Positions 17,109 through 21,231 of a stretch of DNA of 64,000 nt are shown here, in pieces. Source of the stretch: Candidatus Babelota bacterium (GTDB taxonomy: Bacteria > Babelota > Babeliae > Babelales > Vermiphilaceae); the NCBI GenBank assembly GCA_029262575.1, contig JAJCZC010000023.1, positions 13,959 through 77,958 on the forward strand, written 5' to 3'. Within the stretch, counting starts at the first letter, position 1; each line of letters begins with the position of its first letter. Below the pieces are notes generated by a model, which saw only the letters and a program-made list of their open reading frames with translations, had not been told where the DNA came from and did no database searches. The translations under genes were made by a program, and so were the position numbers.

Positions 17109-17837
17109 TTAAAGAATTTCACATGAACAAGGGCAGCGATTTCTATCGGAAAAATCGACGGTCACATCCCGGAAACCACGCTCTTTTTTTAAACGATCAA
17201 TAGCCTCATTGAATATGAGCAAATGCCGCTCTTCAATCTTTTTAACTGCATCGGACCGCTCCATACATTTATTTTTAAAATCTGAAAGCCACCCTTGAAG
17301 AACACTTTCGGACAGCTTTATGTGAGTATAAGCACCAGCATTAATCAAATAATTTGCTTCTTGATAGATAGGCTGATGACGAAATGTTTCAAACCCGGGT
17401 TCAAAATGAACACCGCGATGCACTTTATATGTATGACCACAAATGATTATATGATTTAAGACCGAGACTCTGATAAGTTCCCGGGCTAACTCACTGAAAT
17501 TCGGATGATGATCCGATAGTTTATCCAACATTTTTTTTATGCCTATAAACGTTTGCTTATGTATAACCGGATAAGTACCTTGAATATTAATCATGCGATG
17601 ATTGTAAAGAAGATCCCTTGTTTCAGGATCTATAGTTGAATCTTTAAAACAAGATTTCGTTGTTAAATTATGAACAGAAATCCCTGTAAATTTGAGAAAC
17701 TGATCAATTGTAACCGGCCTGGAAACCCTCCATATTCGCCGACGACTTGCTTGATCTGTGCTAGAACTTGCACAATGAAGGGCTAAATGCAAACCCAATG
17801 CAATCAAAAATAATTTTTTCACAAACCTAAACCTCAT
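17109..17837 (-). CDS. hypothetical secreted protein ending in a CaaX-like CEIL
   Basis: 242 aa. MRFRFVKKLFLIALGLHLALHCASS signal peptide. Start ATG overlaps the purP stop (ATGA). C-terminus ...RNRCPCSCEIL. No domain recognised. Confidence 0.55.
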   Translation of the reverse strand: MRFRFVKKLFLIALGLHLALHCASSSTDQASRRRIWRVSRPVTIDQFLKFTGISVHNLTTKSCFKDSTIDPETRDLLYNHRMINIQGTYPVIHKQTFIGIKKMLDKLSDHHPNFSELARELIRVSVLNHIIICGHTYKVHRGVHFEPGFETFRHQPIYQEANYLINAGAYTHIKLSESVLQGWLSDFKNKCMERSDAVKKIEERHLLIFNEAIDRLKKERGFRDVTVDFSDRNRCPCSCEIL

Positions 17838-18967
17838 GTAATAACTTCGAGTAATCTATCTTGTCGTTGTGCTTGCGCAATTTCCATCGCAATACGTCTG
17901 CCCGCACTGATATCTTTGCCATGCAAATATCTGCTATAAGGCGTAAATTGAATACCAGGACTACCTGGCACACGCAATGAAACATCAAACACCACAATCT
18001 CTTTTTTTGGTGGCCCTGCAATAATAGCTGATTGCAACGCAAATGGCCCAATAGGGCCAGGCGCATATTCTTGTTGCACCGTATCAATAAATCTTTGACC
18101 TATATCAAACACGTTTTCGAGCATCGATTCGAGCACCGTTACGGCAATGTGCCCCGCTTCTTCGAACTTTGGTTGCATGATATCTGCCACCTTTTGTTGC
18201 TGGTCGGTTGGTAAGCGCAAAAAACCATCCAAATTTGTTTGGCGCCGAGTGTCGGTTCCTAATAGTTCAAGACGTTTTGAAAGTGGTGAATAGAAGTAGT
18301 TAAAGTTCACCAACGGCCCAACCACAAATTCTTCAATCACCGCTTCGCATAAACGCGCAGGATCAATTTCATCATTATCAACTTTGTGTTTTATGGTTGT
18401 TTGATACTCAGCCGATGAACTGCAATGAAAAAAAGAACGTTCAAATTTTCGCGTCTTTTCGGGTAGCTTAACTAAACAGCAACGATCAATATCATCTGGT
18501 TTGGCAAAAATTTTAGGAATGCGAATACCAGCTTTACGCAAAAGATCATACTGATTGTTGGCGCTTGTGCGTTCTTCAGCTTTAAGTAAATATCGATTAC
18601 CAAACATGGGCACCGCAAATTCAGTTTCAATGCGATCATAGGCAAAATCAAGATATACTTCAAATGAGCGATGTGGCACAAAAATGACATTGTGTGCACG
18701 CAACTGTTGCTGCACTTCGTCGTTTAGAATATCGGCAAATTTATCCAACACAATTACCTCATCGACAATGCCGATGCCATCTCGAGTTTTATAATGTTGG
18801 GCATAGGTATGCTCTCTGCCTTTTTGGCATACGACTAATGTTTTGAACCCTTCATCTTTTGCGCCTCTGCACACATCAAGTGCCGAATGGGAACCCATAA
18901 CGCCAATGGTGATATTATTTGAATCATATTCGTTGAGAATATTTTGCAATCTTACTTTATCAATCAT
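17834..18967 (-). CDS. purP: archaeal-type FAICAR synthetase (ATP-grasp, formate-dependent), paralog 1
   Basis: 377 aa. ITIGVMGSHSALDVCRGAKDEGF, VPMFGNRYLL, NFNYFYSPL, ELLGTDTRRQTNLDG, VVFDVSLRVPG. Same motif order as my recollection of Methanocaldococcus PurP, but more diverged than its neighbour. Confidence 0.8.
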   Translation of the reverse strand: MIDKVRLQNILNEYDSNNITIGVMGSHSALDVCRGAKDEGFKTLVVCQKGREHTYAQHYKTRDGIGIVDEVIVLDKFADILNDEVQQQLRAHNVIFVPHRSFEVYLDFAYDRIETEFAVPMFGNRYLLKAEERTSANNQYDLLRKAGIRIPKIFAKPDDIDRCCLVKLPEKTRKFERSFFHCSSSAEYQTTIKHKVDNDEIDPARLCEAVIEEFVVGPLVNFNYFYSPLSKRLELLGTDTRRQTNLDGFLRLPTDQQQKVADIMQPKFEEAGHIAVTVLESMLENVFDIGQRFIDTVQQEYAPGPIGPFALQSAIIAGPPKKEIVVFDVSLRVPGSPGIQFTPYSRYLHGKDISAGRRIAMEIAQAQRQDRLLEVIT

Positions 18968-19962
18968 CCAAGCACCTTTTCAAGTTGTTGCCGCTCAATA
19001 GCATGTTTAACTTCTCGCGCAATTCGCCTACCGGTGCTCATCGGTTCGTTATACCGCAAGTAACTATAAGGGCTACCATTCATATGCACATTTGTGCCTG
19101 CAACAATGCGTGCAGAAATCTCAAACACATAAAATTGCAAATCGGATGTGATGATTGTCTCAAGTGAAAATGCGCCATATAAACCTTTTGGTGTTAGTTT
19201 TCTAGAATGCTCAACCACTGCACTGCCCATTTCAAACACTTTTGGCAATAATGATTCACGCACCACCAAAGGATGATTACCCGTAACGGTATATGAGCTG
19301 TGCAGATCAAAATAAGCTTGATCACGTACAGCTAATCTGCCAATGCCATCAACATTCGATTCATACCGTTTATCAAAACCGAGCACTTCAAGCTCATCAT
19401 CAAGTGGCGAATAAAAATAATGAATGTAAGTTGGCACTCCCACTACATATTCCTGAATGATATAATCATCATTGATACGATCTTTGATTTGAGCATAAAA
19501 TCCATCAGTGTTTTGTGCCAAAAAATAACCCCGGCCACCATCGGCACCATGAAACTTGATAATGCATGGACGATCAATATCTTCAGGCGTTGCAAACACT
19601 TTGGGCACGGTGAGCCCGGCATCTTTGAGCCATGCGTTTTGTTTGTCCCGATCAGCTTCAATGGAAAGAATTTTTTTATCGCCAAAATAGGGCACTTTAA
19701 TCGTGTTAATCTTATCAATGCCCAAATAAGCAATCATTGATGCATGGGGAATCAGCACAGCATCACGTTCTTGCAAAACATCTTCATGCTTAAAGAAATC
19801 ATCATACGCATCTATAGTGATAATCTCATCAGCAACGCCAAAACTTTTATACGGTATTTCTTTACCTTTTTGACAAATACAAAGGGTGCCGAAACCCTCG
19901 TCTTTGGCACCCTTTAAAATTTGCAATGCTGAATGACTACCAAATGTGGCAATAACAGACAT
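18964..19962 (-). CDS. purP: archaeal-type FAICAR synthetase (ATP-grasp, formate-dependent), paralog 2
   Basis: 332 aa. IATFGSHSALQILKGAKDEGF, IKFHGADGGRGYFLA, IHYFYSPL, VLGFDKRYESNVDG, NHPLVVRESLLPKVFEMG, YVFEISARIVAGTN. Close end-to-end resemblance to archaeal PurP as I remember it. Confidence 0.9.
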   Translation of the reverse strand: MSVIATFGSHSALQILKGAKDEGFGTLCICQKGKEIPYKSFGVADEIITIDAYDDFFKHEDVLQERDAVLIPHASMIAYLGIDKINTIKVPYFGDKKILSIEADRDKQNAWLKDAGLTVPKVFATPEDIDRPCIIKFHGADGGRGYFLAQNTDGFYAQIKDRINDDYIIQEYVVGVPTYIHYFYSPLDDELEVLGFDKRYESNVDGIGRLAVRDQAYFDLHSSYTVTGNHPLVVRESLLPKVFEMGSAVVEHSRKLTPKGLYGAFSLETIITSDLQFYVFEISARIVAGTNVHMNGSPYSYLRYNEPMSTGRRIAREVKHAIERQQLEKVLG

Positions 19963-19992
19963 GTCTCTCCCTAAGTTAGTTAATCTAAGTAT

Positions 19993-21231
19993 TTACAAAG
20001 TAATCACGATTGCATCACGCACATCACACGCTTTGTTACGTGCATCATCAATCGTTGTCCCGCGCGCAAGTGCCACACCCAATCTGCGTTCACTACCAGT
20101 AATTTCTGGCTTACCAAATAAGCGCACATCTGTGTTTGGTTGCAATAGTGCATTATTAATATCAAAACGCACATTTCGCGATACCCCTTTTTTGACCAAT
20201 GCTGCCGAAGCAGACGGTCCATATTGCTCAATGTTTGCAATGGGTAATCCTAAAATTGCACGTGCATGCAAGGCAAACTCAGATAAATTTTGTGAAATCA
20301 ATGTGACCATACCCGTGTCATGTGGACGCGGGGAAACTTCGCTAAATAAAACGTCATCACCTTTTATGAACAGTTCAACACCAAACACACCTTGTCCACC
20401 AAGTTCATCTACCATGGTTTTGGCAATGTATTGTGCTTTTTTGAACACATGCTCCGACATTGGATGCGGTTGCCATGATTCGCGATAATCACCATCTACC
20501 TGTTTATGGCCAATTGGATCGCAAAAAAGTATTATGCCATTTTTTTGACGCACCGTGATGAGCGTAATTTCATAATCAAAATCAATAAATTCCTCAACAA
20601 TTACTTTACCTGAAATGCCACGTCCTTCATCCCCCGCAATCTCCCACCCTCGTTTAATATCATCTTGTATACGCAAAATTGATTGCCCTTTTCCTGATGA
20701 ACTCATGCTCGGTTTAACAACGCATGGCAAGCCAATGTTCAGCACCGCTTCGTTATATTCAGCTTCACTTCGTGCAAAACGATAACGTGTGGTTGGTAGT
20801 CCAAGTTTTTCTGCTGCAACTTTGCGAATGCCCTCGCGGTCCATGGTCAACTTCGCAGCACGTGCTGTTGGAATAACGGTATAGCCCTTTTGCTCAAACT
20901 CACACAAAACATCTGTCGCAATTGCTTCAATTTCAGGGACAATATAATTAGGCTGTTCTTGCATGATCACATTACGCAATGCATCTGCATCAATCATGGA
21001 AATCACATGTGAACGATGCGCAACTTGCATGCCAGGCGCATTGGCATAACGATCAACAGCAATCGCCTCAACGCCAAATCGTTGCAAGGCAATGATCACC
21101 TCTTTACCCAATTCACCCGCACCCAAAAACATGACCTTTGTTGCATCTTTGGCATATGGCGTTCCAATTGGTTTTGCATGAAAAATTATGCAATGGAAGA
21201 CAGTCAATACTATAAAAAATATTTTTTTCAT
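19993..21231 (-). CDS. purT: formate-dependent GAR transformylase
   Basis: From ATG 21231 (GGAG SD 8 nt upstream; the track's 21243 start is a TTG). [72 protein letters not shown] as in E. coli PurT. Preceded by a ~20-aa hydrophobic N-terminal extension. Confidence 0.9.

Follow-up and report, generated by a model that had tools for sequence, protein, structure and literature searches.

The 64,000-nucleotide stretch analysed here (hereafter the window; positions 13,959 to 77,958 of contig JAJCZC010000023.1, assembly GCA_029262575.1) comes from a Candidatus Babelota bacterium of the TM6/Dependentiae phylum and carries a purine biosynthesis island in which purT, encoding the formate- and ATP-dependent glycinamide ribonucleotide (GAR) transformylase, is followed by a pair of genes of the PurP family, the family of the formate-dependent synthetase of FAICAR (5-formamidoimidazole-4-carboxamide ribonucleotide). 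PurT and the PurP pair probably build purines without 10-formyl-folate in this bacterium, the pair standing in the place of PurH. In Escherichia coli, PurN and PurT both serve step 3 of the pathway and the folate-dependent PurH alone serves step 9; the same principle of alternative folate and formate routes is seen here, with formate routes only, at both steps.

The three genes follow each other on the minus strand: purT (19993..21243, 416 amino acids, probable start ATG at 21231), PurP-a (18964..19962, 332 amino acids) and PurP-b (17834..18967, 377 amino acids), with the stop codon of PurP-a overlapping the start codon of PurP-b in an ATGA. Hidden Markov model (HMM) and phmmer searches agree with the preliminary description of the window, which had read these three open reading frames (ORFs) as PurT and two PurP paralogs. 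PurT is a predicted true ortholog, as it scores above the equivalog cut-off (TIGR01142, 583.5 bits against 502.15; NF006766, 602 bits against 339); in Pfam it contains an ATP-grasp domain and PurT_C, the latter at 2.6e-21. Both PurP proteins contain DUF1246 and then DUF1297, in the correct order, spanning the full length and above the gathering thresholds of 25 and 23.8 bits, respectively; the scores are 146.6 bits (4.6e-43) and 238.7 bits (4.7e-71) for PurP-a, and 154.4 bits (1.7e-45) and 195.1 bits (1.1e-57) for PurP-b. In full-length phmmer alignments, PurP-a matches the PurP of Methanocaldococcus jannaschii (2r7k) at 1.3e-105 and the Pyrococcus furiosus protein PF1517 (2r84) at 2.1e-103, and PurP-b matches 2r7k at 1.1e-70 and also aligns to PF1517. 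The AlphaFold (AF2) model of PurP-b (pLDDT 86.8, pTM 0.88) has 2r7k as its best Foldseek fold match (TM 0.82/0.87); the next ATP-grasp match outside PurP is about 1e-11 weaker in E-value, and generic ATP-grasp proteins are far weaker. Sequence, tree and fold thus all place both proteins in PurP, and neither clusters with another ATP-grasp family.

Three classes of PurP have been described, cluster Ia or PurP I (M. jannaschii, with proven activity), cluster Ib or PurP II (PF1517) and cluster II or PurP III (PF0421) (PMC3261824, PMC6486802). In cluster II, by definition, Asn258 is replaced by His, and a longer loop that is poor in glycine takes the place of the (K/R)GG(K/R)G P-loop (PMC3261824). 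At the active-site positions of Brown et al. 2011 (PMC3261824; M. jannaschii numbering), PurP-a keeps Asn258 (within TGN) and a glycine-rich P-loop, DGGRG, with Asp for Lys/Arg at the first position. It thus shows the combination of Asn258 and P-loop that marks clusters Ia and Ib, and it sits in the clade of PF1517, as a FAICAR synthetase homolog of the cluster Ib (PurP II) type. PurP-b has His at position 258 (within AGH), and the loop EKTRKFERS, two residues longer, replaces the P-loop; it does not show the cluster Ia/Ib combination and fits cluster II as Brown et al. define it. Further changes in PurP-b are E310D, E230Q and the replacement of GGTN by GSPG. Both proteins retain His27, Lys156, Glu200, Ser266 and Arg314, and the formyl-contacting His27 and Arg314 as well as the phosphate-contacting Ser266 are conserved in at least 95% of both clades.

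A tree of 85 sequences falls cleanly into two clades, a and b (SH-aLRT 100), and each of the window proteins agrees with the consensus of its own clade at all of the 15 clade-discriminating columns. [quoted passage not shown] The same clades recur in the a and b subtrees, and these mirrored phylogenies indicate that the two genes were inherited together. The preliminary description had called the product of 17834-18967 the more divergent paralog, possibly with a different substrate; PurP-b does belong to the separate b clade, but by tree and residues it is a typical cluster II (PurP III) member and no oddity.

The genome that contains the window (G000; 1.67 Mb, 41 contigs, 95.6% complete, 2.7% contamination) was searched for the folate-dependent alternatives. 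HMM searches detected no PurH formyltransferase domain (AICARFT, named for its substrate 5-aminoimidazole-4-carboxamide ribonucleotide, AICAR), no Formyl_trans_N (PurN, Fmt, PurU), no PurO (PF07826), no FolD C-terminal domain, no formate-tetrahydrofolate (THF) ligase (FTHFS) and no MGS domain, the domain type of the inosine monophosphate (IMP) cyclohydrolase half of PurH (IMPCH). With E. coli K-12 queries, tblastn found no purH, purN, fmt, def, folD, thyA, folA, folP or metH, and no purA, purU, pflB, pflA or focA; the same searches strongly recovered purD, purM, guaA, purF, glyA and ftsH. The sister genome G225 (1.17 Mb, 14 contigs, 97% complete), which was examined whole, lacks PurH, PurN, PurO, a stand-alone IMP cyclohydrolase, FolD, FTHFS, Fmt, Def and PurU, and in the genome G092 neither PurH nor PurO was found. 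The absence of purN, purH and a PurO-like cyclohydrolase, which the preliminary description had reported for the window, therefore extends to the entire genome assembly and to G225, and for PurH and PurO to G092.

The genome retains GlyA (639 bits), ThyX and a FolC-like protein, and G225 retains GlyA, ThyA and FolA. Only the 10-formyl branch of folate metabolism is missing, and the use of folate seems limited to GlyA, ThyX and the FolC-like protein. The suggestion of a purine pathway needing no 10-formyl-THF thus stands in so far as no gene making or using this cofactor was found; folate metabolism as such is not wholly absent. Since the genes for 10-formyl-folate are lacking, both purine formylations have to run on formate and ATP. 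The two genomes differ in their thymidylate synthases, with ThyX in G000 (C22:8219-8800, L098) and ThyA next to FolA in G225 (C7:123065-124346). In both, def is missing alongside fmt, and translation initiation therefore appears to proceed without formyl-methionine. The loss of fmt, the methionyl-tRNA formyltransferase gene, has been published for TM6/Dependentiae (PMC4776705); we found no published report of the loss of def in TM6.

PurP has been stated to be restricted to archaea in a survey of 1,403 genomes (PMC6486802), and the preliminary description treated it as an archaeal signature. This is the view of the literature, but sequence databases contain thousands of PurP homologs, many of them from Gracili-, Peregrini-, Kaiser-, Woese-, Davies- and Curtissbacteria and from Eremiobacterota, so that the family has a broad distribution over CPR bacteria and Eremiobacterota. 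In all bacterial loci examined, except where a contig end truncates the locus, the two paralogs are close together, with a before b. Among 261 genomes of the phylum, three carry the pair: G000, G225, which belongs to the same family, and G092, from the same order. The gene order is a, b, guaA throughout these three, and guaA also directly follows the pair in the close relative L192 (PurP identity 88-91%). PurD, used as a marker of the de novo pathway, was detected in seven of the 261 genomes, with G022, G100, G208 and G222 among them. TM6/Dependentiae have been described as lacking any nucleotide biosynthesis (PMC4776705), and the PurD-bearing genomes contradict this blanket loss. The genome studied here is thus at odds with both published generalizations, on PurP and on TM6.

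The clusters in the seven PurD genomes are homologous (47-60% identity for purSL, purQ, EamA, purCE, purD and purF) and differ in their formyl-transfer modules. G000, G225 and L192 combine PurT at step 3 with the PurP pair at steps 9-10; G100 combines PurT with a full-length PurH, which is also found for steps 9-10 in G222; and the more distant relative L239 has PurN at step 3 and the PurP pair at steps 9-10. No folD was found within the 34% of the G100 genome that was examined. In L239 (9192-12132 of a 1.24-Mb scaffold), PurN has a hydrophobic leader and divergently adjoins the PurP pair. The purine clusters compared have no further gene of unknown function in common. Another conserved unknown gene was looked for in the PurH-less clusters and this candidate was rejected, the extra genes of the Dependentiae clusters being ankyrin, beta-lactamase and secreted ORFs. 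The extra genes of CPR clusters encode an AAA_28 ATPase and an unassigned protein of 316 amino acids.

Purifying selection on the two PurP genes is strong. In the comparison with L192, the dN/dS ratios of PurP-a (0.071), PurP-b (0.066) and the EamA transporter gene (0.055) are the lowest three in the cluster, the eight cluster genes shared with L192 ranging from 0.055 to 0.13. All 12 pathway ORFs of the island are intact.

In the pathway that we propose, PurT would formylate GAR using free formate and ATP, and the translationally coupled PurP-a and PurP-b would take the slot that the bifunctional PurH occupies in the sister clusters. We infer that the pair formylates AICAR with formate and ATP. 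Folate would then serve only the GlyA-ThyX thymidylate cycle, and the whole purine ring would be made without 10-formyl-folate. The formate is most likely derived from the host, given that searches with E. coli queries found no pyruvate formate-lyase (PFL), FocA or PurU.

Since there is no PurO, no IMPCH/MGS domain and no shared candidate gene, the most economical reading of the last step is that the pair itself closes the ring. The two proteins might act as one complex in which PurP-b turns FAICAR into IMP, a suggestion that we regard as somewhat less probable than its contrary. PurP-b would be suited to such a role by its nucleotide-binding and formyl-contacting residues His27, Arg314 and Ser266, which are kept, but has His258 and a remodelled phosphate loop. 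Even more tentatively, the pair of a cluster Ib and a cluster II PurP could be a self-sufficient, folate-independent module leading from AICAR to IMP, with PurP-b as a third kind of IMP cyclohydrolase. The same IMP cyclohydrolase gap has been documented in Crenarchaeota, Thaumarchaeota and Pyrococcus, the Ib and II pair is known to occur without a known IMP cyclohydrolase, and a cyclohydrolase role has already been proposed for one PurP paralog (PMC3261824, PMC6486802, PMC6797443).

Several observations weigh against a folate-independent pathway in which the pair replaces PurH. Both PurP proteins fall under the cut-off of the NCBIfam equivalogs for formate--phosphoribosylaminoimidazolecarboxamide ligase (best scores of 400.4 bits for PurP-a and 308.8 for PurP-b, cut-off 556). 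No PurP of cluster Ib or II has shown activity, and P. furiosus PF1517 and PF0421, assayed separately, are reported to have given no detectable FAICAR synthetase activity (cited in PMC3261824 and PMC6486802). The genome is a draft in 41 contigs. L239 combines the pair with the folate-dependent PurN, which indicates that a folate-dependent step 3 can coexist with PurP at step 9. In the genome studied here, guaB is reduced to a remnant and purA is missing, so that IMP is left without an evident onward route and the pathway could be decaying. The guaB remnant is the chief reservation about a working pathway in this genome.

The distribution of PurH adds to these points, as 10 of 13 other bacterial carriers checked keep this enzyme, as a full-length protein or divided between AICARFT and IMPCH genes. 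The full-length form is found in carriers from the CPR Gracilibacteria/Peregrinibacteria group and from Eremiobacterota, and three of the four carriers inspected from Microgenomates have the split form, with adjacent genes (L196, L197 and L198, from G272, G269 and G274, respectively). Of the four Microgenomates loci inspected, three have GlyA close to the split purH, and L198 has FolD there as well; in G272, G269 and G274 the PurP pair is located elsewhere in the genome. An eleventh carrier (G273, L199) has only an ORF of the AICARFT type, and the IMPCH half was not detected. PurO was found in none of the bacterial carriers checked, and the only genomes without any known cyclohydrolase are the three from Dependentiae and three small CPR-like ones. 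The retention of PurH in 10 of the 13 carriers implies that the pair is not generally a replacement of PurH but usually an addition to it, comparable to that of PurT to PurN in E. coli.

These observations leave room for other explanations. It is possible, if rather unlikely in our view, that PurP-a alone is the FAICAR synthetase, that PurP-b is non-catalytic, regulatory or active on another substrate, and that the ring closes spontaneously or through an unlinked, unrecognised enzyme. The loss of the glycine-rich phosphate loop in PurP-b, its GSPG in place of GGTN and its E230Q change are in line with such a division, the altered loops being at the same time the low-confidence parts of the structural model; moreover, almost any protein that binds nucleoside monophosphates could serve as cyclohydrolase according to Brown et al. 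(PMC3261824), and the IMPCH domain of PurH is available in most bacterial carriers. However, PurP-b is constrained as strongly as PurP-a, keeps all five of the retained active-site residues named above and always accompanies PurP-a, and the PurH-less clusters share no other unknown gene. A different explanation, which we consider improbable, is that the island no longer yields nucleotides in this genome, because it is being lost or because it ends at an intermediate. The guaB gene, in the middle of the 96-kb contig C37 (C37:21137-21658), is cut down to a C-terminal remnant of about 166 residues that is 70% identical to the intact GuaB of G225, has no start codon and no catalytic-Cys region, and is separated by about 95 bp from the start of a divergent, intact gene for a tRNA-synthetase-like protein of 473 amino acids; it is probably a pseudogene, and IMP would then have no route to XMP in this genome. 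Together with the missing purA and the insertion of unrelated secreted ORFs into the operon, this would fit decay. On the other side, the 12 pathway ORFs are intact, guaA included, the dN/dS ratios are low over the eight genes shared with L192, and G225 has an intact guaB beside its purine cluster. Either the 4% of the genome that is missing from the assembly contains a second guaB copy, or the step has recently been lost in this lineage. As purA is absent from both G000 and G225, where purB is present, and guaA is part of the cluster, GMP seems to be the sole destination of the de novo pathway, by way of guaB and guaA, and adenine nucleotides are presumably imported.

The completeness and contamination estimates of the draft also allow for purH, purN and folD in its unassembled part, or for a window contig (C23) that is a binning contaminant; we judge this very improbable. 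The independent sister genome G225 misses the same genes, G092 is without PurH and PurO, and published work reports the absence of fmt across the phylum as a whole (PMC4776705). On contig C23, the genes on both sides of the purine block are syntenic with G225, the GC content of 0.384 is in line with that of other contigs, and the orthologs on C23 have a median identity of 57% to those of G225 (47-55% for other contigs). On these grounds C23 was rejected both as a contaminant and as a recent transfer, and the purine island is native to the genome. An archaeal origin of the genome, suspected from the missing Formyl_trans_N/fmt, was likewise rejected: the rRNA operon reaches 1525 bits with the bacterial small-subunit (SSU) model and 1009 with its archaeal counterpart, the bacterial model also wins for the large subunit (LSU), and the loss of fmt is a TM6 trait.

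A folate-independent pathway built on PurT and the PurP pair can be compared with several known systems. The archaeal Ib and II pairs (P. furiosus PF1517, PDB 2r84-2r87, with PF0421; Sulfolobales, Thaumarchaeota and Korarchaeota) consist of the same two-cluster paralogs with the same diagnostic residues, encoded, as here, by adjacent genes amid purine genes in genomes without PurO or PurH2 (PMC3261824, PMC6486802). In contrast to these archaea, the host is a mesophilic, host-dependent bacterium, the nearest sequences are those of CPR bacteria and DPANN archaea, and the pair belongs to a mosaic cluster that also encodes two fusions, PurC-E (PAICS-like) and PurB-M; at the equivalent place, sister lineages carry PurH. 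M. jannaschii, with PurT, a PurP of cluster Ia (MJ0136, 2r7k) and PurO, similarly uses formate and ATP at both formylations and has neither PurN nor PurH; PurP-a is, by a visual estimate on the alignment, about 60% identical to MJ0136, and PurP-b has the N-terminal extension and the fold of MJ0136. Unlike M. jannaschii, which has a single Ia PurP of proven activity and PurO, the window encodes an Ib and II pair and the genome no PurO. Of the features of a Methanococcales-type folate-independent pathway, PurT and PurP without PurN or PurH are thus present and a 10-formyl-THF route is lacking, and a recognised IMP cyclohydrolase (PurO or PurH2/PurJ) was not found. The pairs of CPR bacteria (Microgenomates, Gracilibacteria, Peregrinibacteria) and Eremiobacterota resemble the present one in the order a before b, in their location in purine operons and in their mirrored phylogenies. 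Most of these carriers have PurH, in contrast to the Dependentiae carriers, which are without PurH, and the two of them checked for FolD lack it too.

The components are therefore already known, PurT and the archaeal PurP II/III couple being automatically annotated in many bacterial metagenome-assembled genomes. What is new is the presence of the pair in Dependentiae, the lack of the whole 10-formyl-folate branch, and the alternation of PurH and the PurP pair in homologous clusters within one phylum. In a mesophilic bacterium with a genome of 1.2-1.7 Mb, the pair is the only candidate for both final steps of purine synthesis, and relatives with PurH at the same place of the cluster provide a ready comparison. 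The Dependentiae are thereby a tractable system in which the question of the missing archaeal IMP cyclohydrolase can be tested, with proteins that need no thermophilic conditions. If the pair were indeed an AICAR-to-IMP module, the Dependentiae clusters would represent a natural swap experiment in which the pair is exchanged for PurH and no other gene is gained. The proposed pathway would also illustrate how guanine nucleotides can be assembled from host formate in a symbiont that lacks 10-formyl-folate.

The remaining genes of the island lie on both sides of the purT-PurP block. Downstream on the minus strand are guaA, encoding GMP synthase (15567..17093, NF000848, 688 bits), and a purC-purE fusion (13637..14899, Pfam SAICAR_synt and AIRC) for the synthetase of succinylaminoimidazolecarboxamide ribonucleotide and the carboxylase of aminoimidazole ribonucleotide. 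Between PurP-b and guaA, the minus-strand ORF 17109..17837 encodes a lineage-specific protein of 242 amino acids with a signal peptide and without a Pfam or NCBIfam match; it overlaps PurP-b by an ATGA. A second ORF with a signal peptide is located at 14928-15545, between guaA and purC-E. In L192, G225 and G092, guaA overlaps PurP-b directly and the 242-amino-acid ORF is missing; both wedged ORFs are absent from these three and are therefore recent insertions into a translationally coupled operon. In L239, guaA adjoins the PurP pair on the opposite strand. The 242-amino-acid protein was considered as the missing IMP cyclohydrolase and rejected because of its signal peptide, the lack of a family match and its absence from L192, G225 and G092; a Cys-rich ORF of 205 amino acids was rejected on the same grounds.

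On the plus strand, beyond purT, are a purS-purL fusion for formylglycinamidine ribonucleotide (FGAM) synthase (21368..24220, TIGR01736, 576 bits), purQ, encoding the glutaminase of this enzyme (24163..24981, Pfam GATase_5, 2e-80), and the adjoining gene of a transporter of the EamA/DMT type (24991..25926, Pfam EamA). The purQ flank could be seen in six Dependentiae clusters, and in five of them (G225, G092, G100, G022 and L192) the transporter gene adjoins purQ; the exception is G222, in which purQ is followed by purH and not by EamA. What this transporter carries may be linked to the pathway, for example formate, an intermediate or a product. Further along, on the minus strand, are purD (31893..33221, TIGR00877, 563 bits), a purB-purM fusion (33218..35659, Pfam Lyase_1, ADSL_C, AIRS and AIRS_C) and a divergent purF (35682..37631), which scores 122 bits with TIGR01134, below the cut-off. 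PurF is 24% identical to E. coli PurF and has orthologs with 46-49% identity in the G225, G100 and G222 clusters. Fusions vary between the clusters (window 33218-35659; L099 15562-18025; L187 14272-16608): PurB and PurM, fused in the window, are encoded by separate genes in G225, and G100 has a PurM-PurD fusion.

Some of the enzymes start with hydrophobic leaders resembling Sec signals, namely PurT (21172-21231, roughly 20 amino acids), PurD (33162-33221) and PurF (37563-37631, 23 amino acids before the catalytic Cys); PurP-a, PurP-b, GuaA, PurSL, PurQ and PurB are leaderless. Leaders ahead of the conserved cores are also present in GuaB, PurN, PurC-E and PurM of relatives. They differ in sequence and are alike in character in at least six genomes (loci L099, L100, L185, L186, L189, L192 and L239), and the PurT leader has kept its character in G225 and L192.

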